From a virus (taxonomy: Duplodnaviria > Heunggongvirae > Uroviricota > Caudoviricetes), in IMG/VR virus record IMGVR_UViG_638341086_000004: a stretch of 11,922 nucleotides of DNA; one strand, given 5' to 3'. Of this stretch, positions 558-11,922 are shown one piece after another. The notes beneath the pieces are model-generated. The model did not search any database. It saw only the letters and a list, made by a program, of their open reading frames with translations, and was not told the DNA's origin. The translations under genes were made by a program, and so were the position numbers. Positions within the stretch are counted from its first letter, which is position 1; every line of letters starts with the position of its first letter.

Positions 558-864
558 CCTGTTTACCTCTTTCTCAGGAAGTTTAGTCTCCAGGATTCCC
601 GGGGCGGTTCACCCCGCCATACTTACCGCCGCGCCATTTCGCGGGTTGCCACAACCGGAAGCGCACGGTCGACGAAAATTTAACGACAGGCTATCTATGA
701 ACCAGCTACCTCGCCGTGCGCTTTCGCGTTATGGTCTGACTTTTCAGGGAAATATCCTTTCAGTAAACTGTCAGTGCCGGATGCTCACCCGTGTCCGGCG
801 CACGCACTCCACCTCACCCGTGGAGAACTCCTTAATTACTAACCTTAGCTTTGTTGATTAGCTA

Positions 865-1083
865 CTAACGCGGGTATGTAATCATTCTGGCAATGCTTAA
901 TGCCGCTGCTTTTTCCAGATTGGTGATATCCTGCTCCAGAGCGGACAGATTTTCAGCCTGCTTAGCCCTGGCTTCATTAGCCCATTTCAGATCCTGCGCT
1001 GCATTAATTTTCTGGCGCATCCACTCATAAAGTTCATCATCGGTATAGTCTGGCGCGATGATGACGGGTTCTCGTTTCTGCAT
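865..1083 (-). CDS. Hypothetical small prophage protein (72 aa), third gene of a leftward early operon; size and position resemble kil-type genes, with no sequence-level support
   Basis: ORF with a GAGGA-like RBS upstream of the ATG at 1083. It is co-directional with and tightly spaced after the two small ORFs upstream. Protein is coiled-coil-like (KINAAQDLKWANEARAKQAENLSALEQDITNLEKAA). Confidence 0.5.
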   Translation of the reverse strand: MQKREPVIIAPDYTDDELYEWMRQKINAAQDLKWANEARAKQAENLSALEQDITNLEKAAALSIARMITYPR

Positions 1084-1112
1084 ACTGATTCCTCGCGGTG
1101 CTGTTTCGCTTA

Positions 1113-1241
1113 TCAGCCGTTAGATTTTGCCGAACTGGAAAGCGCCTGTTTAAACTCACTGAAGCTGAGAGCTTCTTCGCCTTCGGCAAGGCCTTCGAAG
1201 TATTCTTCGTAAGCCTTTTCCATGATTGTGTCGAAATCCAT
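1113..1241 (-). CDS. Hypothetical small acidic protein (42 aa), absent from the supplied ORF track
   Basis: Hand translation of the minus strand: MDFDTIMEKAYEEYFEGLAEGEEALSFSEFKQALSSSAKSNG. Strong RBS (AGGTGA) 5 nt upstream of the ATG. The start is coupled to the stop of the upstream gene (TGAtATG arrangement). Confidence 0.4.
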   Translation of the reverse strand: MDFDTIMEKAYEEYFEGLAEGEEALSFSEFKQALSSSAKSNG

Positions 1242-1242
1242 A

Positions 1243-1398
1243 TCACTCACCTGAGTTTCTTTCCAGCCAGCGACGGGCACCATTTTCGGTTTTAAACGTT
1301 TTGCTTTTGGTATACGTCATTGCGGTGAACGTGCCGTCCTGGTTTGGAAACACGCCGTACACCAGAGATTCGTTGTTGCCAAGATCGATAGTATCCAT
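1243..1398 (-). CDS. Hypothetical small prophage protein (51 aa from the internal ATG; an alternative upstream ATG at 1479 would give 78 aa)
   Basis: ORF MDTIDLGNNESLVYGVFPNQDGTFTAMTYTKSKTFKTENGARRWLERNSGE with a GAGG RBS 5 nt upstream of the ATG at 1398. First gene of the leftward operon next to the operator region. Confidence 0.45.
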   Translation of the reverse strand: MDTIDLGNNESLVYGVFPNQDGTFTAMTYTKSKTFKTENGARRWLERNSGE

Positions 1399-1584
1399 GC
1401 TGACCTCATTTCCCCTTAACGCCGGGGTAGCGGAACAAAAACCTGCTGCATAGTTATTAAAGTTGAACCCTGCCGTCATGTTCTTACGCTTCGGGCTGGC
1501 TACTTAACCCCTGACCACTGCCTGGTAACTCGAAGTATTGCCCTGCATTCTGTGGGGCGGGGTGGGTTGGTATGAAAAGAAGGA

Positions 1585-1621
1585 TACCCATAGGTATTTA
1601 AAAAGTAAATACCCATGGGTA
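1585..1621. promoter_or_regulatory. Left operator region (OL-like): two palindromic repressor-binding candidates, TACCCATAGGTA (1585-1596) and the perfect palindrome TACCCATGGGTA (1610-1621)
   Basis: Two 12-bp dyads with centres 25 bp apart in the non-coding gap between the repressor 3' end and the leftward operon. The same half-site (TACCCA) recurs in the repressor/cro intergenic region. Confidence 0.5.
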
Positions 1622-1663
1622 ACTTTTTGCGGTGTCTTAACTGGTGACTAGTTGTTTGGTGAG

Positions 1664-2083
1664 CTATGATGCGTTTTGTGCTTTCTTTTTACGGATTTCT
1701 TCGTAGATCATATTGTAATACTGTTTTTTCTCTTCAAGAGTTTTTAATAAGTTATCCGCTTCACTTTCTGGCAGTTCGTCTAAGAGATCTAAAAAAATAC
1801 GTTGTCGTGGCGTTAGAACCCTTGTTTCATAACTGGAGGCTGTGTTCGTTGATGATGAAACGATACCATCCATCCATCCCCGGGGTAACCCAAAGGACTC
1901 TTCGATAATCTCCACCATATCATCAGCGATCCGTTTTTTTCCCTTTTTCCCCTCTGGGTACAACATTCTTGATACATAAGAAGGCTCGCGCCCGATCTTT
2001 CTGGCCACGTTAACCGCTTTACCATCGCATTTCTCATCACGAATTTTGATGAGTTGCTGTCGTCTAAATTCATATTTATCCAT
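1664..2083 (-). CDS. Prophage immunity repressor, short HTH-only type (RacR/DicA-like size class; no S24 peptidase domain)
   Basis: 139-aa ORF divergent from the cro-like gene. An HTH-like segment (GKAVNVARKIGREPSYVSRMLYPEG) and the length are incompatible with a LexA-type cleavage domain. No SD upstream of the ATG, suggesting a leaderless mRNA. Confidence 0.75.
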   Translation of the reverse strand: MDKYEFRRQQLIKIRDEKCDGKAVNVARKIGREPSYVSRMLYPEGKKGKKRIADDMVEIIEESFGLPRGWMDGIVSSSTNTASSYETRVLTPRQRIFLDLLDELPESEADNLLKTLEEKKQYYNMIYEEIRKKKAQNAS

Positions 2084-2119
2084 AGGTAAATAATAGATGC
2101 GATTACTGCAAGGTAAACA

Positions 2120-2158
2120 ACCTGTGGGTATTGACTTTTGTTTACCTGTGGGTATTCT
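2120..2158. promoter_or_regulatory. Right operator/promoter region (OR/pR-like): two copies of ACCTGTGGGTAT (2120-2131 and 2144-2155) overlapping a candidate rightward promoter (-35 TTGACT at 2131-2136, -10 TATTCT at 2153-2158)
   Basis: Two identical 12-mers 24 bp apart carrying the TACCCA half-site (reverse complement), in the divergent intergenic region. A -35/-10 pair with a 16-bp spacer is positioned to drive the cro-like gene (RBS AAGGAG at 2173-2178, ATG at 2184). Confidence 0.5.
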
Positions 2159-2183
2159 TTGCTGTGTTTACTAAGGAGTAGCT

Positions 2184-2465
2184 ATGGAAGAATTAAGAAT
2201 ATTTCTCAATTCTCTTTCGTCAGATGAACAGCGTATGTTTGCATGCGAGTGTGGTACCAGCATCGGTTATCTAAGAAAGGCATTGAGTAAAGGTCAAGTG
2301 TTAGGGGCATCGTTATGTGTCCTTATTGAGCGAGCCAGTAATGGTGAAGTTACACGTCAGCAACTAAGGCCTTTTGATTGGATGAATATTTGGCCCGAGC
2401 TGGAAGATACCAAAACGTTAACACAACCACTTTCTAGGAGCTTGATTCATGAAAATCAAGCATGA
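2184..2465 (+). CDS. Cro-like HTH regulator (YdaS family)
   Basis: 93-aa ORF with a strong RBS (AAGGAG), first gene rightward from the operator region. Sequence resembles YdaS-type Cro analogues (recall). Its end overlaps the start of the next gene. Confidence 0.75.
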   Translation: MEELRIFLNSLSSDEQRMFACECGTSIGYLRKALSKGQVLGASLCVLIERASNGEVTRQQLRPFDWMNIWPELEDTKTLTQPLSRSLIHENQA

Positions 2466-2874
2466 ACACATCCGCATGGCGATGAATGCCTGGGCGCATC
2501 CGGACGGTGAAAAAGTTCCGGCAGCTGAAATAACCAGGGCTTATTTTGAACTGGGTATGACGTTCCCAGAACTGTATGACGACAGCCATCCGGAAGCCCT
2601 GGCTCGCAATACCCAGAAAATTTTCCGCTGGATAGAGAAAGACACCCCTGATGCAGTTGAAAAAATTCAGGCGTTGTTACCAGCGATCGAAAAGGCAATG
2701 CCACCTTTGCTGGTGGCCAGAATGCGCAGCCACAGTTCAGCTTATTTTCGGGAGCTGGTGGAGACGCGGGAGCGACTGGTGAGAGACGCTGATGATTTTG
2801 TAGCAGTGGCAATCGCCGGTTTCAATCAGATGAACCGTGGTGGCCCGGCAGGAAATGCTGTGGCAGTTCATTGA
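2449..2874 (+). CDS. CII-like regulator (YdaT family)
   Basis: 141-aa ORF with an AGGAG RBS 8 nt upstream, overlapping the end of the cro-like gene. Position and size match the YdaT class that follows YdaS in Rac-type immunity regions (recall). Confidence 0.75.
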   Translation: MKIKHEHIRMAMNAWAHPDGEKVPAAEITRAYFELGMTFPELYDDSHPEALARNTQKIFRWIEKDTPDAVEKIQALLPAIEKAMPPLLVARMRSHSSAYFRELVETRERLVRDADDFVAVAIAGFNQMNRGGPAGNAVAVH

Positions 2875-2945
2875 CTGACAATAGCCATATCGAATCGCTT
2901 CCGGCAACTCGTGAGTAAAAAGATTCGGTATCAGAAGAGGTGAGT

Positions 2946-4016
2946 ATGGCTAACGCCTGGCTCAGATTATGGCATGACATGCCAAATGACCCTAAGTGGC
3001 GAACAATTGCCAGGGTGTCAGGGCAGCCAATTGCAACAGTGATGGCAGTGTATATCCACCTCCTGGTGAGCGCGTCACGAAATGTCACGCGAGGTCACAT
3101 TGATGTCACGACAGAAGATTTGGCAAGTGCGCTCGACGTGACAGAAGAGGTAATTGATTCAATTTTGCAGACGATGCAGGGGCGGGTACTTGATGGTGAT
3201 TTAATCACTGGATGGGAAAAACGCCAGGTGCTGAAAGAGGACAACGGCAATATTTCGCAAACCGCAAAATCTCCTGCAGAGCGCAAGAGGGCGCAGCGAG
3301 AGAGGGAAAGAAAGCGGGAACAAAATGGCGATTGTCACGGCGCGTCACGAAATGTCACGCACATGTCACGACGAGTCACGACAGATAAAGATACAGATAA
3401 AGATACAGATAAAGATACAGATAAAGATACAGATCAAGAAGATCAAAACACTATGGTCCATGGCGTAAAAAACGCCACGAACCAGGCAGGGGATGTTCAG
3501 ACCGTCAATCCTGGTCAGCCAGCAGGCACGACACCGGAAGCCGATTCGGGCGCTGTGCAGCAGGTGATGACCGCAAGGCCGGAGCAATCACACCAACTGC
3601 AGCAGCCCGAAGCCGATTCCGCCATTCAGCGGGAAGCCGATCGGGTAGTCCCGGAAAACACCGGTCAGTCTGTGGGACGAGTGGATTATCCGGATGTGTT
3701 CGAACAGGTCTGGCGGGAGTACCCGTTGCGTGCTGGGGCAAACCCGAAGAAATCCGCTTTCAGTGCCTGGAAGGCCAGATTACGCGAGGGGGTGCCACCA
3801 GAGGCCATGCTGGATGGTGTGAGGCGTTACGCGAGATACCTGGCGGCGACCGGGAAAGCGGGAACGGAATTTGTTCAGCGAGCGACGACGTTTTTTGGGC
3901 CGGACCGGAATTTTGAAAACCCCTGGTTGCTCCCGGTAAGCGGCACGAACAACCAGCGTTGCGTGAATCACATTTCTGAACCGGACACTGAAATACCGCC
4001 GGGATTCAGGGGGTGA
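2946..4016 (+). CDS. Phage replication initiator (O-like role) with a DnaT-like C-terminal domain
   Basis: ORF starting at the ATG at 2946 (GAGG RBS 5 nt upstream; the ORF track starts at GTG 2940). The C-terminus ...VNHISEPDTEIPPGFRG resembles the C-terminus of E. coli primosomal protein DnaT as I recall it. The middle of the gene carries iteron-like repeats and an AT-rich tandem repeat. It is immediately followed by a DnaC-like gene. Confidence 0.8.
   Translation: MANAWLRLWHDMPNDPKWRTIARVSGQPIATVMAVYIHLLVSASRNVTRGHIDVTTEDLASALDVTEEVIDSILQTMQGRVLDGDLITGWEKRQVLKEDNGNISQTAKSPAERKRAQRERERKREQNGDCHGASRNVTHMSRRVTTDKDTDKDTDKDTDKDTDQEDQNTMVHGVKNATNQAGDVQTVNPGQPAGTTPEADSGAVQQVMTARPEQSHQLQQPEADSAIQREADRVVPENTGQSVGRVDYPDVFEQVWREYPLRAGANPKKSAFSAWKARLREGVPPEAMLDGVRRYARYLAATGKAGTEFVQRATTFFGPDRNFENPWLLPVSGTNNQRCVNHISEPDTEIPPGFRG
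3074..3110. repeat. Iteron-like cluster 1: four GTCAC(G/A) motifs phased ~10-11 bp apart
   Basis: GTCACG at 3074, 3084 and 3105, GTCACA at 3094. The 20-mer CGCGTCACGAAATGTCACGC (3071-3090) recurs exactly at 3341-3360. Confidence 0.55.
3334..3380. repeat. Iteron-like cluster 2: five GTCACG motifs phased at helical-turn spacing, directly upstream of an AT-rich tandem repeat (candidate phage origin)
   Basis: GTCACG at 3334, 3344, 3354, 3365 and 3375. Contains the second copy of the 20-mer CGCGTCACGAAATGTCACGC. Lies inside the initiator gene, as lambda-type origins lie inside O. Confidence 0.6.
3384..3431. repeat. Perfect 12-bp tandem repeat (GATAAAGATACA x4, then a degenerate partial unit), AT-rich; encodes a (DKDT)n linker in the initiator
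   Basis: Read directly from the sequence; units at 3384, 3396, 3408 and 3420. Immediately 3' of iteron cluster 2. Confidence 0.85.
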
Positions 4017-4022
4017 CGTGTC

Positions 4023-4769
4023 ATGAAAAACATTGCGGCAGTTGGGGTTCTTGAACGTATTCGCAGACTTGCACCACAGGGGGCGGTTCCACCGTACCGG
4101 ACGGTGGAGGAGTGGCGGGAATGGCAACTTGCTGAAGGACGAAAACGCAGCGAGGAGATTAACCGCCAGAATCGCCAGTTGCGGGTGGAAAAAATCCTGA
4201 ATCGTTCGGGCATCCAGCCTCTGCACAGCAAATGCTCGTTTGCGAATTATCAGGTGCAGAATGACGGGCAAAAATACGCGCTGAGCCAGGCCAAATCCAT
4301 AGCTGACGAACTGATGACCGGGTGCACGAATTTTGTGTTCAGCGGTAAAACCGGCACCGGGAAAAATCACCTTGCAGCGGCGATGGGTAACCGGCTGATG
4401 GCGAAGGGGCGCAGCGTGATTATCGTCACCGTGTCTGATGTCATGAGCGTGTTGCATGACAGCTACGACAACGGCAAATCCGGGGAAAAATTTTTACAGG
4501 AGCTTTGCGGGGTTGATTTGCTGGTCCTGGATGAAATAGGCGTTCAGCGGGAGACGAAAAACGAGCAGGTGGTATTACACCAGATAATTGATCGCCGGAC
4601 AGCATCACTGTGCAGTGTCGGGATGTTAACAAACCTGAATCATGCCGCAATGAGCACGCTTCTTGGTGAGAGGATTATGGACCGGATGACCATGAGCGGT
4701 GGTCGATGGGTGACGTTTAACTGGGATAGCTGGCGTCCAAATGTCAGCAATATGAGGGTTGTGAAGTAA
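4023..4769 (+). CDS. DnaC-like replicative helicase loader (AAA+ ATPase), phage-encoded
   Basis: 248-aa ORF with Walker A (GKTGTGKNHLAAA) and Walker B (LLVLDEIG) motifs. Collinear similarity to E. coli DnaC over its length (recalled sequence: ...NRSGIQPLH..CSF.NY..., MLTN.N...LLGERIMDRM). GGGGTGA RBS upstream. Confidence 0.9.
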   Translation: MKNIAAVGVLERIRRLAPQGAVPPYRTVEEWREWQLAEGRKRSEEINRQNRQLRVEKILNRSGIQPLHSKCSFANYQVQNDGQKYALSQAKSIADELMTGCTNFVFSGKTGTGKNHLAAAMGNRLMAKGRSVIIVTVSDVMSVLHDSYDNGKSGEKFLQELCGVDLLVLDEIGVQRETKNEQVVLHQIIDRRTASLCSVGMLTNLNHAAMSTLLGERIMDRMTMSGGRWVTFNWDSWRPNVSNMRVVK

Positions 4770-4790
4770 TTTTGTCCGGAGGAAATTTTA

Positions 4791-5562
4791 ATGGAAACCG
4801 TATCTGACGCACTGAAAGCACTGAAAAAAGCCTCTTCACATGTGGTGGCAGCTCGCCTTGGAATCAGTCGTGAAGAGGCTGTCAACGAGCTGTGGGAACT
4901 CAAAAGAAATGGCGTCGTTGATAAAACTGGTCACACCTGGTTTCTGGCTGGCGAAGGTGAATCCCTGGTAACCGAAGAGCTGCCAGTAAAATCTGAAGCA
5001 CAGGATATGCTGACCGGGGAGGTCGAACAAAAAGTTACCGCAGACATGATGATTGAGTTTATCGGTCAGGGATGGGGCTAAAACGTGTGAGGAACTGGCG
5101 GGTAAGTTCGGCGTCAGTACTCGCAAGGTTGCTTCCACGCTGGCGGTGGTAACCGCAACGGGGCGGCTGGCACGCGTTAATCAGAGCGGTAAATTTTGTT
5201 ACTGCATGCCGGGCGATAATTTACCAGCAGAGTCGAAAGCCGCGCTGGTAACGGAAAATGATGGTAAGGCCTTTCCTCAGCCAGCAGGTGCTGCGTTACC
5301 AGTCCGGGAAGCCGCAACACAGGAAGAAATTAAAACAGAAACTGTGGCGGACATTGTGCAGCCGTTGCTATCGTTTACCGAAACGCAAGCAGATGAGCTG
5401 ATTTTTCCGTCCCTGCGCAGGGCAAACCTGGCGCTGCGCAGGGCGAAAAGTGATGTTCAGAAGTGGGAGCGAATCTGCGCCGCGCTGCGGGAGCTGAACA
5501 AGCACCGGGATATTGTTCGACAGATTACTGATTCTTCCCGCCGTGTTGTATCGGAAAAGTGA
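4791..5562 (+). pseudogene. Winged-helix-like protein of unknown function (DUF1627-like), apparently split by a +1 frameshift in a G-run at ~5069-5071; the two ORF-track pieces are 4791-5081 and 5053-5562
   Basis: The first ORF (RBS GGAGG, ATG 4791) stops at 5079-5081. The second ORF continues in the +1 frame and has no ATG/RBS of its own (the ORF-track start is TTG). Removing one G from the GGG at 5069-5071 fuses them into one ~257-aa protein (...[21 protein letters not shown]...). Confidence 0.5.
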
Positions 5563-5577
5563 TTGCCGAAGGCGCTT

Positions 5578-6003
5578 ATGGCAAAAGTATTTACACAAGA
5601 AGAGCGAGAAAAAATTAAAGGGCAGGTTGTTGAGCTAGTACGCCGGAGTGGGCGCGAGACGTTACGGCAACTGGAAGCCAAGACAGGTGCGACAAGATAT
5701 CTGATGAGCGTTCTTGCCAGAGAGCTGGTTGCCAGTGGTGATGTATATCACTCTGGCTATGGGTTGTTCCCGTCAGAACAGGCGCGTAAGGACTGGCAAA
5801 ACGCCCGCAAAAAACTCTCGAGGGCAAAGGTGAAGAAACCTGTTGTGGTTGATCCGGGCCTTATCTGGACATTACCCGACGGAGAAATACACCGCTACGA
5901 CAGGCGTATGAACATAATCTGTCGCGAGTGCCGGAAGAGCGAAGCTATGCAGCGTGTACTGGCATTTTATCAAGGAAATGTTAGATATTTTAGACGTTAC
6001 TAG
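5578..6003 (+). CDS. Hypothetical prophage protein (141 aa from the ATG at 5578), possible winged-helix N-terminus
   Basis: ORF with a GAAGG RBS ~7 nt upstream of the ATG at 5578 (the ORF-track start at 5563 is TTG). No recognisable catalytic motifs. Confidence 0.6.
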   Translation: MAKVFTQEEREKIKGQVVELVRRSGRETLRQLEAKTGATRYLMSVLARELVASGDVYHSGYGLFPSEQARKDWQNARKKLSRAKVKKPVVVDPGLIWTLPDGEIHRYDRRMNIICRECRKSEAMQRVLAFYQGNVRYFRRY

Positions 6004-6156
6004 ATTAAAGAGCATTAGTTCAGATGTGAATTGACATTTTCATGGCGCAGGGTAGAGCCAGCGTGGTTGTCCGCTTTGCGTCAAAACCAGATATTACCAG
6101 ATTTAGACATATATTCCCGATAGCCCTGCTCTGATGCTACACTCTGTGCTATTTTC

Positions 6157-6843
6157 ATGACCCCAATAAAAATATTTATGACTATTGCTGATTTCAAACG
6201 GCCTAAATTGGAGCTTCCAAACGGGGCAAACAAACTACTACTGCACTCTTGCTGTGCTCCATGTTCCGGTGAAGTGATGGAGGCGCTTCAGGCCTCGGGA
6301 ATCGACTACACCATCTTTTTCTACAACCCGAACATTCATCCTCAGAAAGAGTATTTAATTCGTAAGGATGAAAATATTCGCTTTGCTGAACAACACGGCG
6401 TGCCGTTTATCGATGCTGATTACGACACCGACAACTGGTTTGAACGTGCCAAAGGAATGGAATGGGAGCCTGAGAGGGGGATCCGTTGTACCATGTGTTT
6501 TGACATGCGTTTTGAGCGGACAGCGTTGTACGCTGCTGAAAATGGTTTCAGTGTGATCAGTAGTTCACTGGGCATTTCACGCTGGAAAAATATGCAGCAG
6601 GTTAACGAGTGTGGGCGGCGAGCTGTTGCGCATTATCCGGGTATGGTGTACTGGGATTATAACTGGCGCAAGCAGGGCGGCTCGTCCCGTATGATTGAAA
6701 TCAGCAAGCGCGAAAAATTCTATCAGCAGGAATATTGTGGCTGTGTGTATTCTCTGCGCGATACCAATCTACACCGCAAATCTCAGGGACGCCCTCTTAT
6801 CAAAATTGGCCAACTCCACTACGGAAAAGAAGAGAAGGAGTGA
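6157..6843 (+). CDS. QueH-like protein (DUF208/COG1636 family, putative epoxyqueuosine reductase-type Fe-S enzyme)
   Basis: 228-aa ORF with the [11 protein letters not shown] motif that I recall as the hallmark of DUF208/QueH, plus further conserved Cys (CTMCFD, EYCGCVY). No clear SD; an alternative ATG lies at 6178. Extended -10-like TGCTACACT at 6134-6142. Confidence 0.7.
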
Positions 6844-7021
6844 TTTTATGGATCACCTTTCTGATTGATTTCATATTGGCGAGGTGACGTGAGTTAAGTA
6901 GAATTGCTGCGGGTGCCTGAGGCTGTCTGCCTCAGGCATGAACACCAAAAGGCAGATAGAGAAAGCCCCAGTTAACATTACGCGTCCTGTAAGACGCTCA
7001 ACATTAATCTGAGGCATATGG

Positions 7022-8146
7022 ATGCGGATGAAAGAATTAAATAAATTCAGAGTGATAGACCTCTTTTGTGGGGCAGGTGGATTATCTTATGGTTTTCTTC
7101 ATGGAGAGATGTCTGACTACTTTGAAAGTATCCTTGCTATTGATAATAATGCTGCAGCTATAAATACCTACAATGCCAATTTTGGTTTGCATGGAGTTCA
7201 GGCAAATATTGAGGAGTGGGCATCCAGCAATACTGTTCCTGAGGCTGATGTGGTCATAGGTGGCCCCCCGTGTCAGGGATTCAGTTTATTGAATAAGAAT
7301 CGTTATGGTGATCACCGAAGAGCATTGTGGGAGCCTTATATGGATGTCATTGAGCGTTCAAGGGCTTGTATGTTCGTCATGGAAAATGTCCCCGGATTGC
7401 TGATAAGCGATGAGTTTGCGGACATTACGTTTAGAGCGAAATCCATGGGCTTTATTCTGCTTAATCCAATGGTGTTGAATACTGCTGACTATGGAGTACC
7501 TCAGACAAGAAAACGAACGATAGCAATCGGTATCAAACGAGAACTCTTCGATGTGCATAGTATTCCGGCGTTCCCGCCAGCACCAACGCATCGTTCCCCT
7601 GATAAGGATGTCGCTTTGCCTGAATGGGTCTGTACGCGTGATGCAATTGGTGACTTACCTGCTCCTGTTGGAACTGATATTCGTAATGAACTTCCTCCGC
7701 TGAACTTACATTTTGGGCGTAATCCCACACCTGTTTCTCTGGAGCGATATAAAGCGGTTCCACCAGGAGGTAACCGTTTCGATTTACAGAAAAAAAGACC
7801 TGATATAACCCCGGCGTGCTGGCTAAAAAAGAAATCTGGAGGGACCGATTTGTTTGGACGTCTGTGGTGGGACAAACCTTCAGTAACGATTCGTACTGAG
7901 TTTTTCAAACCGGAGAAAGGGCGATATTTACATCCGGAAGAGGATCGGCCAATAACTCATCGTGAGGCAGCGAGATTAATGTCTTTTCCTGATAATTTCA
8001 TTTTTACCGGTTCAAAAACTGAGATTGCAAAGCAGATCGGGAATGCTGTTCCACCGCTATTTGCGGCAAAAATCGCACAATATGTGTATGGAGTTTTGCA
8101 GGGACGGTATAAGAATAACATCAGTAAGAATAGTCAAGCAGCCTGA
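7022..8146 (+). CDS. DNA (cytosine-5)-methyltransferase (Type II R-M modification subunit)
   Basis: 374-aa ORF with canonical C5-MTase motifs in order: I (DLFCGAGG), IV (GGPPCQGFS), VI (ENVPGL), VIII (QTRKR), IX (RPITHREAARLMSFPDNFIF), X (GNAVPP). RBS GAGG 7 nt upstream. Confidence 0.92.
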   Translation: MRMKELNKFRVIDLFCGAGGLSYGFLHGEMSDYFESILAIDNNAAAINTYNANFGLHGVQANIEEWASSNTVPEADVVIGGPPCQGFSLLNKNRYGDHRRALWEPYMDVIERSRACMFVMENVPGLLISDEFADITFRAKSMGFILLNPMVLNTADYGVPQTRKRTIAIGIKRELFDVHSIPAFPPAPTHRSPDKDVALPEWVCTRDAIGDLPAPVGTDIRNELPPLNLHFGRNPTPVSLERYKAVPPGGNRFDLQKKRPDITPACWLKKKSGGTDLFGRLWWDKPSVTIRTEFFKPEKGRYLHPEEDRPITHREAARLMSFPDNFIFTGSKTEIAKQIGNAVPPLFAAKIAQYVYGVLQGRYKNNISKNSQAA

Positions 8147-8160
8147 AGGAAATCCAGAAA

Positions 8161-9038
8161 TGAATGGAGATTTGGTTGACAGCATAGTTGGTTTTGCTGA
8201 AGCCAGAAAGGAGTTTCATGCCCAATTGTTACTGAATACGCTCACAATTAATACTGCCGGAGTTGTTAGTAACGCAGATAGCAGTAACAAAAACAGTAAA
8301 GCTATAGCAAGAGAAATTGCTCGCTTCTTGCAGGCTGAAACGATTGGTGAACGTGTTGCAGGGCAAACATCTGGTAATCAGTTTGAGAGTATCTGCGCAG
8401 AGTTTATAGAAAAAACCTTTTTTAAACTCAGCCACTTACGCCCTGGAAAATGGAATGTACATCAGGTTTCTGGTAGAAACAGATTAGAGATAGCTAAATA
8501 TGAACAATATGCCCATCTTATAGCATTGGATAGTGCTGCAAAAAGTAATCCTCAGCTAGCTGCTGCACTGGGGAGTGATTATACGATTTCACCAGATATT
8601 ATTGTTGAAAGAGAACCTGAATGTGATCAAGTTATCAACAGTCCTGAATTACTGGTGGATGATTCTGTTACCCGCATGTCAGCTCTCAGGAGTTCGAATG
8701 GTGGGAAACCAATATTACACGCAAGTATTTCCTGCAAATGGACAATAAGAAGCGACCGGGCCCAGAATGCTCGTTCTGAGGCATTAAATCTTATTCGCAA
8801 CCGTAAGGGAAATCTCCCTCATGTAATGGTTGTTACTGCTGAGCCTACTCCAAGTCGTCTGGCGTCTATTGCTCTTGGTACTGGTGATATAGATTGCGTG
8901 TATCATTTTGCGCTTTATGAACTTATATCAGCAGTTGAAATACTGGGGCTCAGCGATGCAGCTGACATGCTTTCCGTGATGGTTAATGGTAAAAGATTAA
9001 AGGATATTTCTGATCTTCCCTTGGATCTTGCAGTCTGA
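8161..9038 (+). CDS. Putative Type II restriction endonuclease, NgoMIV/Cfr10I/Bse634I-like (PD...SxK...E fold variant)
   Basis: 292-aa ORF starting 15 nt after the MTase stop (RBS GAAGGA). Candidate catalytic residues E76, D146 (SPDIIV), S191-C192-K193 and E207, with K-to-E spacing of 14; this matches the pattern I recall for NgoMIV (E70/D140/K187/E201), offset by 6 residues. The ORF-track start at 8025 overlaps the MTase and is rejected. Confidence 0.7.
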
Positions 9039-9110
9039 CATCTCTACGTAAATAGAGTCTGTCATATTTTAACTGTGATGGCACGTCATTGACTTCAGTA
9101 CATTTTTACT

Positions 9111-9137
9111 AACCCGCTTCGCGGGTTTTGTTTTTTC
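9111..9137 (+). terminator. Rho-independent terminator closing the cargo/R-M block
   Basis: AACCCGC-TTC-GCGGGTT hairpin (7-bp stem) followed by TTGTTTTTTCC. Confidence 0.7.
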
Positions 9138-9208
9138 CTGGCATTCTGGTTTACAATCCACACGCCAGCCTGAACAACTGGCACCTGCTGCGCCAGCAGA
9201 GACAACCG

Positions 9209-9481
9209 ATGGCGCACAATACCAAACACCACAATTCTGATGCCGACCCTGCCAGCAGACACGGACGGCGCTCTCACGCATTCAAATATGACTGGTACCA
9301 GCATGACCAATGCACTGAAGAACAGGCCGAGTGGCTGATTCAGAATTACCGCAGACGTGGATACCAGTTTCAGAAAGGCCTCAGTCCTGACTTCCGACGC
9401 TGGATAATTTCCGTCAGGCTCCCTTATTCCGAACGCCCGCCGCGTCCGTCCCGCACATATCAGCAACGCATCTGGAGGTAA
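9209..9481 (+). CDS. Hypothetical small basic protein (90 aa); position upstream of the DUF968 gene is reminiscent of rem in Qin-type prophages (positional only)
   Basis: ORF whose stop (TAA 9479-9481) sits directly against the GTG start of the next gene (9483), suggesting translational coupling. Weak RBS; a candidate promoter (-10 TACAAT at 9152-9157) lies upstream. Confidence 0.4.
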   Translation: MAHNTKHHNSDADPASRHGRRSHAFKYDWYQHDQCTEEQAEWLIQNYRRRGYQFQKGLSPDFRRWIISVRLPYSERPPRPSRTYQQRIWR

Positions 9482-9482
9482 C

Positions 9483-10532
9483 GTGCGGGTATTACTTCGA
9501 CCTGTTCTGGTACCGGAACTCAGTCTGGTTATCGTTAAGCCAGGCCGTGAATCAATGTCAGTATTCCATAACGGCAGAATATTGGTGGAACCGGAACCCA
9601 AAAACATGCGCAGTCTTCCGTCCGGCGTCGTTGCAGCCGTTAGCCAGCCGTTGGCTGAGGATAAAACATTACTACCATTTTTCAGCGATGAGCGGGTAAT
9701 TCGTGCAGCAGGTGGTGCAGGTGCACTGTCTGACTGGTTATTACGTCACGTGAAATCCTGCCAGTGGCCACACGGCGATTATCATCACAGCGAAACAGTC
9801 ATTCACCGTTACGGTACCGGCGCGATGGTGTTGTGCTGGCACTGTGACAACCAGCTGCGCGACCAGACATCAGAATCACTCGATCAACTTGCTCAGCAGA
9901 ATCTGGTTGCCTGGATGATTGACGTCATCCGTCACGCAATAAGCGGCACGCAGGAGAGGGAGTTATCGCTGGCCGAATTATCCTGGTGGGCGGCCTGCAA
10001 TCAGGTGGTGGATGCACTACCTGAGGCAGTAGCGCGTCGTTCTCTGGGATTACCGGCGGAAAAAATCCGCTCCGTATACCGTGAAAGCGACATCATACCG
10101 GGAGAACAGACCGCCACCAGCATACTGAAGCAGCGCACAAAAAATATTGCGCTACCGCCTCACACCCACCAGCAACAGAACCCACCACAGGAAAAGACGG
10201 TGGTCAGCATTGCCGTTGATCCGGAGTCTCCGGAATCCTTCATGAAACGACCTAAACGTCGCCGCTGGGTAAATGAGAAATACACACGCTGGGTAAAGAC
10301 ACAGCCGTGTGCGTGTTGTGGTAAGCCAGCGGACGATCCTCATCATCTGATTGGTCATGGTCAGGGTGGAATGGGAACAAAATCCCACGATATTTTCACG
10401 CTACCGCTGTGTCGGGAGCATCACAACGAGCTTCATGCGGATCCGCTGGCGTTCGAAGAAAAGCATGGTTCCCAGGTTGATTTAATTTTTCGTTTTCTTG
10501 ATCACGCCTTTGCGACTGGCGTGCTCGGGTAA
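9483..10532 (+). CDS. DUF968/YdfU-like protein with a C-terminal Cys/His-rich HNH-like motif
   Basis: 349-aa ORF (GTG start, GGAGG RBS 4 nt upstream). The C-terminus PCACCGKPADDPHHLIGHGQGG...LPLCREHHNELH looks like a zinc-binding HNH-type nuclease signature. Length equals what I recall for E. coli YdfU. Confidence 0.7.
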   Translation: MRVLLRPVLVPELSLVIVKPGRESMSVFHNGRILVEPEPKNMRSLPSGVVAAVSQPLAEDKTLLPFFSDERVIRAAGGAGALSDWLLRHVKSCQWPHGDYHHSETVIHRYGTGAMVLCWHCDNQLRDQTSESLDQLAQQNLVAWMIDVIRHAISGTQERELSLAELSWWAACNQVVDALPEAVARRSLGLPAEKIRSVYRESDIIPGEQTATSILKQRTKNIALPPHTHQQQNPPQEKTVVSIAVDPESPESFMKRPKRRRWVNEKYTRWVKTQPCACCGKPADDPHHLIGHGQGGMGTKSHDIFTLPLCREHHNELHADPLAFEEKHGSQVDLIFRFLDHAFATGVLG

Positions 10533-10544
10533 AAGAGGTGACTG

Positions 10545-10904
10545 ATGCTCATAGAGTTTGTTTTGCCTTACCCGCCGACGGTGAACACCTACTGGCGACG
10601 TCGTGGCAGCACATATTTTGTATCAAAAGCCGGTGAGCGTTATCGCCGGGCTGTGGCGCTTATTGTTCGCCAGCAGCGGCTGAAATTAAGCCTGTCCGGA
10701 AGGCTGGCGATAAAGGTGATTGCAGAGCCACCGGATAAGCGTCGTCGCGACCTGGACAACATTCTGAAAGCACCGCTGGATGCGCTGACGCATGCGGGAG
10801 TGCTCATTGATGACGAGCAGTTTGATGAAATCAATATTGTACGTGGTCAGCCAGTATCTGGTGGACGGCTGGGTGTGAAGATTTACAAAATTGAGAGTGA
10901 GTGA
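10545..10904 (+). CDS. rusA: Crossover junction endodeoxyribonuclease RusA (Holliday junction resolvase)
   Basis: 119-aa ORF with an AAGAGGTGA RBS. Collinear match to recalled E. coli RusA (YPPTVNTYWRRRG..., DKRRRDLDNILKAPLDALT..., GVLIDDEQ...). Confidence 0.9.
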   Translation: MLIEFVLPYPPTVNTYWRRRGSTYFVSKAGERYRRAVALIVRQQRLKLSLSGRLAIKVIAEPPDKRRRDLDNILKAPLDALTHAGVLIDDEQFDEINIVRGQPVSGGRLGVKIYKIESE

Positions 10905-10912
10905 GCGTAAAT

Positions 10913-11464
10913 ATGATATATCCGGAAATTACAGGCAAAAGCGGCGAACATTTACGCCTGAACACGCTGGAAGCAGTCTGGATCCAGGGGAAATTACGGA
11001 TGTGGGGGCGGTGGTCGTATATCGGTGGGGGTAAATCCGGAAATATGTTTAACCGGTTACTGGTTTCGAAAAAGCTGACGAAAACAGCAGTTAATGAGGT
11101 TTTACGCAGAATGAAGAAATCCGGGCTGGAAAAACCGGAACTTGAGGCATTTTTTCGGGATATGACAAGAGGAAAGCAGAAGAGCTGGTTGTCACATTGT
11201 ACAGACACAGAGGCGTTGATTATTGATCGCGTTATCAGTGAGGTGCTTGGGGAATATCCCGGGCTAATCAATGTTCTCCGGCAAAGGTACGAAGGACGGG
11301 GAATGAGCAAACTGAAAATGGCCGAAAGGTTAAATGCAGATCATCCTGATTGGTCGTTGGTTACGTGCAGACGCCGAATTGATCAATGGTTGGGGGTATC
11401 TGAATTTATGTTATATGCCCCCATGCGCATGGCTTTTGTTACAGAGAAAAATGTTGCAAACTGA
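10913..11464 (+). CDS. Hypothetical protein; candidate late-gene antiterminator (Q-like) by position only
   Basis: ORF directly after rusA (ATG at 10913; the ORF track offers GTG at 10901, which overlaps the rusA stop). It is followed by an intergenic region with promoter-like and terminator-like elements, as for Q/pR'/tR' in lambdoid phages. No Q motif recognised by eye. Confidence 0.5.
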   Translation: MIYPEITGKSGEHLRLNTLEAVWIQGKLRMWGRWSYIGGGKSGNMFNRLLVSKKLTKTAVNEVLRRMKKSGLEKPELEAFFRDMTRGKQKSWLSHCTDTEALIIDRVISEVLGEYPGLINVLRQRYEGRGMSKLKMAERLNADHPDWSLVTCRRRIDQWLGVSEFMLYAPMRMAFVTEKNVAN

Positions 11465-11541
11465 TCAATAAACTGCTTCAATCCGTATAAGCTTCGCAAA
11501 GCTGTATCGCGAGGCGAAACGCAAGTTTTTTTCGCACAAGG

Positions 11542-11567
11542 AAGCCACCGGAAGGTGGTTTTTTTGT
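11542..11567 (+). terminator. Rho-independent terminator (tR'-like) downstream of the Q-like gene
   Basis: AAGCCACC-GGAA-GGTGGTTT hairpin followed by a T7 run. A second hairpin, GCGAAA...TTTCGC with a T-run, lies just upstream at ~11508-11535. Confidence 0.55.
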
Positions 11568-11688
11568 GTCCGCGATATACAGTAGCGCAATAAATTCGCT
11601 GGTGGTTATTAATACCGTTCTTTCAGCTTGCTGGCTTTTTCGACAAGAGTTATTGGTGTGTCACGTTAACCGGAAAAGGGAAAAAGAC

Positions 11689-11886
11689 ATGCTAAAACAG
11701 CAGGATATGACAGAAACCGCCAGAGTGGTGTTTAATGAATTAAGCGTTACCGAACCGGCGACAGTCGGGGAGATAGCGCAGAATACTTACCTTTCACGCG
11801 AACGCTGCCAGTTAATACTGACTCAGCTGGTTATGGCGGGTCTGGCAGACTATCAGTTCGGTTGTTACAGACGCCTTCCGCAGTGA
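11689..11886 (+). CDS. Hypothetical small protein (65 aa), possible HTH/winged-helix
   Basis: ORF from the ATG at 11689 with a purine-rich RBS. The ORF-track N-terminal extension from 11566 starts inside the terminator and looks non-coding. The stop is embedded in a terminator hairpin. Confidence 0.4.
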   Translation: MLKQQDMTETARVVFNELSVTEPATVGEIAQNTYLSRERCQLILTQLVMAGLADYQFGCYRRLPQ

Positions 11887-11900
11887 AGGCTTTTTTATTT
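11873..11900 (+). terminator. Rho-independent terminator
   Basis: GCCTTC-CGCAGT-GAAGGC hairpin followed by TTTTTTATTT. Confidence 0.65.
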
Positions 11901-11922
11901 GTGGTAAATGGGCGGCTGGTGG

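Follow-up and report, generated by a model that had tools for sequence, protein, structure and literature searches.

The window that we analyzed, a stretch of 11,922 nucleotides (nt) from the virus record IMGVR_UViG_638341086_000004 of IMG/VR, very probably carries at positions 1581–2874 the immunity region of a lambdoid Escherichia coli prophage related to Qin and CP-933P, with a switch that relies on a leaderless and non-cleavable repressor. The repressor is a protein of 139 amino acids (aa) that is labeled as a 'hypothetical protein' in RefSeq. Its gene and a ydaS-like analogue of cro are divergent and 100 bp apart, with a PR-type and a PRM-type promoter between them, and, as in lambdoid phages, a cII-type activator (ydaT) and replication genes lie downstream of the cro-like gene (Table 1). 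This is a new immunity type in a known class, namely lambdoid switches with short, non-cleavable, leaderless repressors such as DicA and PaaR2. The mechanism is ordinary: lambda, DicA of Qin, and PaaR2 of CP-933P already cover each of its elements.

The original prediction, which was made from the sequence of the window, placed four 12-bp dyads in pairs on either side of the repressor gene, and a direct check of the sequence found all four where it put them. The left pair is TACCCATAGGTA at 1585–1596 and TACCCATGGGTA at 1610–1621 (25 bp spacing), and the right pair is two copies of ACCTGTGGGTAT at 2120–2131 and 2144–2155 (24 bp spacing). The four dyads are far beyond chance. With up to one mismatch, TACCNNTGGGTA has seven strand-matches in the 11.9 kb, corresponding to five distinct sites, and every one of these is within 1585–2154 (the expectation from shuffling is 0.35, and seven was reached in 0 of 200 shuffles). 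Comparison with relatives yields a more general operator motif, TACC-N4-GGTA. Again with up to one mismatch, six of the nine sites for this motif in the window, and all three of the perfect ones, are inside 570 bp; the largest cluster over 500 shuffles was 4 (mean 1.5). So the two-site left operator (OL) of the original prediction stands, but the right operator (OR) has three sites instead of two, as OR3 had been missed. Relative to the repressor's start codon, the OR sites in the window are at −71, −47, and −32, and the downstream pair is at +462 and +487. (We also considered the near-match TATCCATAGGTA, over the start codon, as a fourth right-hand operator for autorepression, and we rejected it. 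The conserved codons ATG GAT A account for half of it, and it has two mismatches in the related loci L056, which is 91% identical, and L055, which is 84% identical. It is probably a chance match.)

The same motif recurs at the same offsets near homologous repressors. For this comparison, we fetched loci around homologues of the repressor of either architecture, that is, with an S24 peptidase domain or with a short tail. In nearly all of the fetched loci, TACC-N4-GGTA starts at −72/−73, −47/−48, and −32/−33 from a conserved MDKYE start codon, and a downstream operator pair with 25–26 bp spacing lies 0.5–2.6 kb past the repressor. About 45 related loci have this layout. OR1 is conserved at −71 to −73, the position of OR3 is kept at −32/−33, and OR2, at −47/−48, nearly always has one imperfect half-site (GGTT). 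For 39 distinct OR regions, the consensus reads TTACCc..aGGTAAa....aaaTCAATACCca.aGGttATTTACCt...GGTA, and the window matches it at nearly all conserved positions, including the GGTT half-site of OR2. The motif-bearing loci are from Salmonella, Yersinia, Serratia, Klebsiella, Pantoea, Edwardsiella, Aeromonas, Neisseria, Burkholderiales, and Xanthomonas, and those with the conserved operator layout span two proteobacterial classes. Conversely, two immunity regions that we examined and that have other repressors, those of Qin in E. coli K-12 and of phage Tritos, lack TACC-N4-GGTA. (Tritos has flanks in common with the window and a repressor of the same size, but it is a different repressor.) The operator reading of the original prediction is thus upheld by strong phylogenetic footprinting, which is not a binding assay.

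The motif overlaps the −35 and −10 elements of the divergent PR and PRM promoters and those of the PL promoter. In the alignment of the repressors, the predicted recognition helix EPSYVSRM (residues 33–40) is invariant or nearly so, which agrees with the invariant half-site of the operator. From the co-occurrence of the DNA-binding domain and the motif, we infer that the repressor binds these dyads and represses PR and PL.

Could the left pair (1585–1621) serve chiefly or additionally to terminate the repressor's transcript, as an intrinsic terminator? Such a terminator would keep transcripts from PRM out of the toxic dicB-type operon to the left. On the minus-strand RNA, the two left dyads do pair with each other: the terminator scan reports a stem of 16 pairs with a 5-nt loop and, as its tail, TCCTTCTTTT, and the hairpin formed by OL1 and OL2 (16 bp, −24.1 kcal/mol, z = −4.7, and 0 of 200 shuffles as stable, followed by UCCUUCUUUU) starts 43 nt past the repressor's stop codon. 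Also, both OL sites of L056 are fully complementary to each other despite having different central bases. However, any two copies of a near-palindromic operator can pair, so the potential to form a hairpin is automatic. The center of the stem is A/U-rich, and the U-tract is missing in L056. In most relatives, the OL pair is 0.6–2.5 kb past the repressor and directly upstream of N-like or other early-left genes, with the −35 and −10 elements in fixed positions. We consider a terminator role to be rather unlikely, and we prefer to read the left pair as the operator of PL.

The PL-type promoter would be transcribed into the leftward ydfA/ydfB/ydfC (dicB-type) operon. In 34 related OL regions, PL has a common design: an operator, a −35 element of TTGACn or TTTACT, 7–8 nt, and an operator whose last TA opens the −10 element. 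This mirrors the layout of PR, whose −35 element (GTCAA on the opposite strand) is kept between OR1 and OR2 in the relatives. OR3 overlaps the −35 element of PRM because that element, TTTACC, includes a half-site of OR3.

The original prediction also proposed that the repressor is leaderless, given a start codon that lacks a Shine-Dalgarno (SD) sequence and a TATTAT hexamer, read on the minus strand, at 2090–2095. Both observations hold. The hexamer ends six nt before the ATG, and the geometry of the promoter places the predicted +1 of PRM at the A of the ATG (2083). For the repressor (positions −20 to −3), the anti-SD duplex has a predicted energy of +1.9 kcal/mol, as compared to −8.6 kcal/mol for the cro-like gene, and a check of the open reading frame (ORF) found no in-frame start codon farther upstream. 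Furthermore, this arrangement is conserved. We looked for the best −10 hexamer within the final 40 nt of 44 distinct upstream regions, and in 30 of these it stops 6–7 nt short of the ATG; the fuller geometry of TTTACC, 16 nt, TAnnnT, 6–7 nt, and ATG likewise describes 30 of 44 distinct relatives. The spacing is conserved even though the hexamers (TATTAT, TAGAAT, TAAAAT, TAGGAT, and others) and the intervening bases vary. The median anti-SD energy in the family is −1.7 kcal/mol, with only 4 of 44 reaching −6, and gene callers often move the start from the conserved MDKYE to spurious ATGs farther upstream.

There are precedents for this arrangement. The leaderless PRM transcript of lambda cI, to which the original prediction likened the arrangement in the window, has been shown experimentally. 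For PaaR2 of CP-933P, leaderless expression was proved by 5' RACE (rapid amplification of cDNA ends) and N-terminal sequencing (PMC8630535). A PaaR-type gene in O157:H7 has the same arrangement (TAAAAT, 6 nt, ATG). Given the conserved spacing amid divergent sequences, it is likely that the repressor's transcript from PRM is leaderless.

The cro-like genes of some relatives have a similar appearance. In betaproteobacterial and Xanthomonas loci (L034, L036, L039, L040, L042–L044, and L048–L050), the cro-like ATG is about 6 nt past a −10-like hexamer and has no SD sequence. These hexamers are made from the end of OR1 (for example TATTGT, TTGCGC, ATG), and the cro-like starts are about 82–85 nt upstream of the repressor's ATG, on the opposite strand. 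In some of these members, both of the divergent genes may be leaderless.

The repressor itself was predicted to lack a peptidase domain, and its relatives make this clear. The protein matches PHROG 5736 ('transcriptional regulator', 4e-70), it has 317 homologues in our search, its 90%-identity cluster has 543 member sequences, and it has no match in Pfam at E ≤ 0.01. Residues 1 to about 75–100, or 55–73% of its length, are 64–82% identical to proteins of 221–242 aa that bear PF00717 (Peptidase_S24) and that are from Salmonella, Edwardsiella, Yersinia, Klebsiella, Pantoea, and others. In particular, cI of the lambdoid phage mEp043 is 76% identical over 72 aa. The S24 block of these relatives is missing from the alignment of the 139-aa protein. 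Instead, the tail (residues 86–136) has similarity to DicA, both by the NCBIfam model NF007257 (2.8e-5, with 23.9 bits against a cut-off of 101) and by pairwise BLASTP (33% identity over 46 aa, E = 1e-7). Only the tail matches DicA; the N-terminal domain does not, so the homology does not extend over the whole protein. The tail is also similar to that of the PaaR-type repressor of the paaR-relB-parE locus of O157:H7 (26% identity over 97 aa), which may be a paralogue of PaaR2.

The AlphaFold2 model (mean predicted local distance difference test score of 86.8) has a four-helix N-terminal domain with the helix-turn-helix (HTH) at helices 23–30 and 34–40, a disordered linker at 77–87, and a helical hairpin at 92–138; past residue 92, there is nothing besides the hairpin. 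Foldseek places the N-terminal domain among the HTH folds of the XRE, C-protein, and lambda-repressor kinds. Its best full-length match is Rep of Salmonella phage SPC32H (5d50), and this match is weak (E ~1e-3, high root-mean-square deviation). Comparing the sequence to PDB chains gave only chance-level matches, such as the ADAR Z-alpha domain (E ~0.08). Thus the protein has the architecture of DicA and the PaaR-type repressors: at 139 aa, it combines an HTH domain with a short helical C-terminal tail.

Judging from the alignments, the repressor is a chimera, in which a DNA-binding domain of the S24 type is joined to a tail like that of DicA. On the evidence of its sequence and its model, RecA-stimulated self-cleavage is excluded, in line with the original prediction, because there is no S24 domain, because the tail is a helical hairpin, and because there is no AG or CG dipeptide in the 139-aa sequence and hence no Ala-Gly or Cys-Gly bond to cleave.

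Two other observations concern the repressor family. First, three E. coli proteins of 135–136 aa (P0015, P0016, and P0018) have first 45 residues that are unrelated to MDKYE (MNLDDSNSSKFVM...) and rejoin the family sequence at ...KKRIADDMVEIIEESFGLPRGW. These look like frameshifted or recombinant alleles that would lack the HTH. Second, we asked if the 'phage repressor pr' of strain Nissle 1917 (PMC5987069) is the same gene, and we rejected this: of four primers, none match the loci of the window, CFT073, F8704-2, or K-12.

To put these elements together, we propose that the repressor, most likely as a dimer, would use its XRE-type HTH to bind the 12-bp TACC-N4-GGTA dyads. At OR1 and OR2, it would cover the −10 element and spacer of PR and the upstream edge of its −35 element, which would turn off the operon of ydaS (cro), ydaT (cII), and the replication genes. 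At OL1 and OL2, it would likewise cover PL, which would silence the ydfA-dicB-type operon. With OR2 centered at −41.5 of PRM and OR3 over the −35 element of PRM, we would expect positive and then negative autoregulation. (In lambda, CI at OR2 activates PRM from the same position, about −42.) Transcription of PRM from the A of the ATG would give a leaderless mRNA for maintenance. Because there is a YdaT operator at 2442–2459, we also expect a second repressor transcript, with a long leader, from a PRE-type promoter that is activated by YdaT. This operator was defined in CP-933P by footprinting and isothermal titration calorimetry (PMC9986795). A scan of 2300–2650 for a PRE-type promoter gave no consensus match, as expected for a promoter that depends on an activator, so the YdaT operator is its only mark. 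Finally, derepression, if it occurs, would involve either an antirepressor, as for DicA/Rem and Gifsy, or stochastic or Cro-driven switching, as in CP-933P.

Several observations weigh against this scheme or parts of it. First, a search of the literature for mEp043, for six operator 12-mers, and for WP_000362155 found no characterization of the repressor or of the operator. Second, PL has a consensus score of only 8/12 and was not listed by the promoter scan. Third, the best-scoring −10 element is located elsewhere in 14 of the 44 relatives, and a few relatives have AGGA or GGAGG about 7–13 nt upstream of the start, which could be an SD sequence. Fourth, the similarities to DicA and PaaR are weak, and fall under the curated cut-off of NCBIfam. 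Fifth, OR2 and OR3 are 15 bp apart (center to center), as compared to 23 bp in lambda, so the occupancy logic of lambda may not transfer. Sixth, tblastn of Rem, the antirepressor of DicA, against the window gave no match, and neither the window nor 41 kb of the CFT073 prophage that carries the same region contains the LexA box CTGT-N8-ACAG. Finally, this copy of the prophage is partly decayed, with an insertion sequence (IS) at 1–610 and a frameshifted DUF1627 gene, so that the switch may have ceased to govern a viable phage.

The sixth point bears on how the repressor could be inactivated. DicA is inactivated by Rem (bioRxiv 10.1101/2023.04.14.536235), and the Gifsy repressors are inactivated by antirepressors that are controlled by LexA (PMC3121763). 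PaaR2 is reported to be unresponsive to mitomycin C, and the CP-933P region switches stochastically (PMC8630535). In the window, we also found no match to a 20-mer LexA consensus with up to three mismatches and no antirepressor-type PHROG among the ORFs that were scanned. The lack of a LexA box means that there is no support for an SOS-controlled antirepressor that is encoded in cis. However, antirepressors are small and diverse, and they may act in trans from other prophages, so their absence is not demonstrated. As neither an antirepressor nor a LexA box was found, antirepressor-based induction stays a conjecture. The literature on induction of CFT073 prophages contained nothing that we could map to this prophage. 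We also considered the ORF at 9128–9481, which is in the syntenic position of rem before DUF968, and it has no similarity to Rem. As a side note, relatives from Yersinia and Serratia with short repressors have a gene for a protein with a Bro-N or P63C domain between the repressor and OL (L007, 4308–5126, and L008, 3648–4622). These domains occur in phage antirepressors, and the window has no counterpart.

The last of the points above raises the possibility that the region is a fossil, that is, the remnant of a decayed prophage without a working bistable switch, or else a permanent lock on toxic dicB/kil-type genes. The IS replaces everything to the left of position 611, the DUF1627 gene is frameshifted, the integrase of the very similar prophage in strain F8704-2 is split by an IS66 element, and the closest studied relatives, Qin and CP-933P, are cryptic prophages. 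On the other hand, the repressor, all of the operators, both promoters, cro, and ydaT with its operator are intact. Moreover, at least 80% of the length of 1500–2500 is found in 821 of 5,426 complete E. coli genomes (at 99.8–100% identity among the 20 best-matching genomes listed), the repressor's cluster has hundreds of members, and the CFT073 prophage with a copy of this region (99.8% identical over 1500–2500, adjoining potC) has integrase, excisionase, lysis, terminase, portal, and head genes. Even a locked repressor remains a working repressor/operator system. We think it unlikely that the region is a fossil.

Still less probable, in our view, is a repressor without translation from a leaderless mRNA, whose functional mRNA comes from a PRE-type or other upstream promoter and is leadered without an SD sequence: the perfect YdaT operator does point to a leftward PRE-type transcript, whose leader would span about 360 nt or more, like that in CP-933P (PMC8630535, PMC9986795), and the promoter scan was only a matching to consensus, whose two hits in an 850-bp region are not above the 1.4 expected from shuffling, but the −10-to-ATG spacing is kept in most relatives while the hexamer and the 6-nt discriminator vary, the −35 element of PRM is part of the conserved OR3, spurious N-terminal extensions to MDKYE by gene callers are typical of leaderless genes, and a leaderless transcript from PRM does not preclude a leadered one from PRE, as lambda cI and PaaR2 each use both.

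If we look beyond E. coli, then the 49 loci in which we compared architectures have the same DNA-binding domain joined to several S24 types, to the DicA-like tail or other short tails, and, in one case, to a second HTH. The DicA-like tail on an MDKYE-type DNA-binding domain is found in Escherichia, Salmonella, Yersinia, Serratia, and Arsenophonus. This pattern raises the question of whether the DNA-binding domain, the TACC-N4-GGTA operators, the three-site OR and two-site OL, and the leaderless PRM form one cassette, with constant half-sites and base-pair geometry across Gamma- and Betaproteobacteria, whose C-terminal 'induction module' (several S24 types, the DicA-like tail, other short tails, or a second HTH) has been swapped repeatedly. 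We see the case for such a cassette as evenly balanced. If it is correct, then the E. coli protein is a natural chimera in which an SOS-cleavable immunity has been made non-cleavable with its specificity unchanged. The family also provides a clean natural comparison, as the same DNA-binding domain and operators occur with a cleavable S24 domain (in mEp043 and in many prophages of Enterobacterales) or with the DicA-like tail, and this can be used to study the evolution of the mode of induction apart from that of immunity specificity. More broadly, a 'hypothetical protein' that is common in E. coli gains a functional assignment, along with a predicted 12-bp operator and a map of its promoters, and the family adds a large and phylogenetically broad set of candidate leaderless genes, of which few are known in those bacteria. 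Our results are useful as annotation, and the breadth of the conservation of the cassette makes them mildly interesting.

Among well-studied systems, the PaaR2/YdaS/YdaT region of CP-933P (PMC8630535) has many similarities to the window. It has a repressor of about 130–140 aa without a peptidase domain that is in the position of cI and divergent from ydaS-ydaT, an intergenic region of about 100 bp, OR and OL operators that overlap PR, PRM, and PL, ydfA/dicB-type genes to the left, and a YdaT-dependent PRE, with the identical operator TTGATT-N6-AATCAA in the window. For PaaR2, gel-shift assays and footprints, activation of PRM, and control of PL have been shown (PMC8630535). However, the repressor, Cro, and the operators differ in specificity (TACC-N4-GGTA in the window versus 18-bp repeats of the type GTTTAGTAA in CP-933P), and there is no paaA/parE toxin-antitoxin pair after the window's repressor. 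(ParE-toxin/RelB-type pairs do adjoin the repressors at 3733–4298 of L003, an S24-type locus from Salmonella, and at 1229–1707 of L058, the PaaR-type locus of O157:H7. In the window, none is present between the repressor and OL.)

The DicA/DicC region of Qin (bioRxiv 10.1101/2023.04.14.536235; PMC3441716) is alike in its location near rspB (for the copy in F8704-2), in its leftward ydfA-ydfB-ydfC-dicB-ydfD operon, in its short repressor without an Ala-Gly bond and with a homologous C-terminal tail, and in having operators on both flanks of the repressor gene. Unlike the window, it has operators of the type TGTTAG...CTAACA, its analogue of Cro is DicC instead of a YdaS-like protein, and it has Rem, for which the tblastn search of the window found no homologue.

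Lambda cI/cro shares the divergent PR and PRM, the three-site OR, the control of PL by OL, the leaderless PRM, and the cII-type PRE as a back-up. The spacing of OR1-OR2 and of OL1-OL2 in lambda is also 24–25 bp, with OR2 at about −42 of PRM, as in the window. In contrast to lambda, the window's sites are 12 bp instead of 17, OL has two sites instead of three and is separated from OR by only about 0.5 kb, there is no sequence relationship between the proteins, and the repressor has no S24 domain and hence no RecA-mediated cleavage.

cI of mEp043 and the other S24 'LexA family' repressors with the MDKYE start are alike in their DNA-binding domain, their operators, their OR/OL layout, and the spacing from the −10 element to the ATG (L053), and differ in having 221–242 aa with an autocleavage domain (PF00717) in place of the DicA-like helical hairpin. 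We found no paper that describes the operators of mEp043. Finally, GfoR and GtgR of the Gifsy prophages (PMC3121763) and Rep/Ant of SPC32H (5d50) show that other short, non-cleavable lambdoid repressors are inactivated by small antirepressors. These have no detectable sequence homology to the window's repressor, for which we did not find a LexA box or an antirepressor module.

Table 1. Features of the probable immunity region and of the adjacent replication genes, with positions in the window.
Feature	Position	Strand	Description
PL-type promoter	1581–1609	−	TTTACT (1609–1604), 17-nt spacer, TATCCT (1586–1581); predicted start ~1574
OL1 TACCCATAGGTA	1585–1596		Putative promoter-proximal left operator; extends over the PL spacer and two bases at the start of the −10
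OL2 TACCCATGGGTA	1610–1621		Putative operator; perfect palindrome; abuts the PL −35
Repressor gene, 139 aa	1664–2083	−	N-terminal HTH domain, disordered linker, C-terminal DicA/PaaR-like helical hairpin
Near-site TATCCATAGGTA	2077–2088		Over the repressor ATG; doubtful
PRM-type promoter	2090–2117	−	TTTACC (2117–2112), 16-nt spacer, TATTAT (2095–2090); scan 9/12
OR3 TACTGCAAGGTA	2104–2115		Putative operator; overlaps the PRM −35 and spacer; center −26.5 from the ATG
OR2 AACCTGTGGGTA	2119–2130		Putative operator; center at −41.5 of PRM and at −40.5 of PR, relative to their predicted starts; abuts the PR −35
PR-type promoter	2131–2158	+	TTGACT (2131–2136), 16-nt spacer, TATTCT (2153–2158); scan 9/12; predicted start ~2165
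OR1 TACCTGTGGGTA	2143–2154		Putative operator; overlaps the PR spacer and the beginning of the PR −10
cro analogue, YdaS-like, 93 aa	2184–2465	+	SD AAGGAG at 2173–2178; anti-SD duplex −8.6 kcal/mol
YdaT operator TTGATTCATGAAAATCAA	2442–2459		Perfect TTGATT-N6-AATCAA; spans the ydaT start codon; predicted PRE-type control
ydaT, functional analogue of cII, 141 aa	2449–2874	+	Pfam YdaT_toxin 6e-10; PHROG 163 'CII-like'
Replication initiator	2940–4016		
DnaC/IstB-like ATPase	4023–4769		

The neighboring genes also speak for an immunity region like those of Qin and CP-933P. The YdaS-like gene matches YdaS in Pfam (9e-6, which is below the curated cut-off) and PHROG 35, and its product matches the PDB 'Cro' chains 8c7k and 8co2 (1e-10). 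The window's YdaT matches the uncharacterized 3c4r (2.5e-91, and near-identical in the printed alignment) and the CP-933P chain 8bt1 (6.9e-81). To the left of the repressor, ydfA (DUF1391), ydfB, and ydfC are the start of a dicB-type operon. Over positions 611–11922, the window shares 99.2% identity with a prophage in E. coli O39:NM F8704-2 that adjoins rspB, which is the attachment region of Qin.

Positions 1–610 are an IS3-family element that is not in the prophage of F8704-2, CFT073, or K-12. It includes a transposase ORF (HTH_Tnp_1) at 231–557 on the minus strand and an ALIL frameshift pseudoknot (RF01497) at 160–276 on the minus strand. The insertion is about 87 nt upstream of the position of dicF in Qin of K-12, so in this copy, the leftward dicF/dicB operon is severed from PL. 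The DUF1627 gene (4791–5562, plus strand) appears as two overlapping ORFs, 4791–5081 and 5053–5562, that match the first and second parts of PHROG 630. As it is a single coding sequence of 750 nt in F8704-2, it is probably frameshifted in this copy.

Farther to the right, a sok antitoxin RNA at 6911–7091 on the plus strand (RF01794, 61 bits, just over the gathering score) indicates a hok/sok module within the prophage. A restriction-modification moron sits between the replication genes and the DUF968/RusA/Q block. It consists of a gene for a DNA cytosine methyltransferase at 7022–8146 on the plus strand and then one for a type II restriction endonuclease of the NgoMIV family, at 8025–9038 as listed (it has a separate annotation in F8704-2). 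Upstream of this moron is a gene for QueH (6157–6843).

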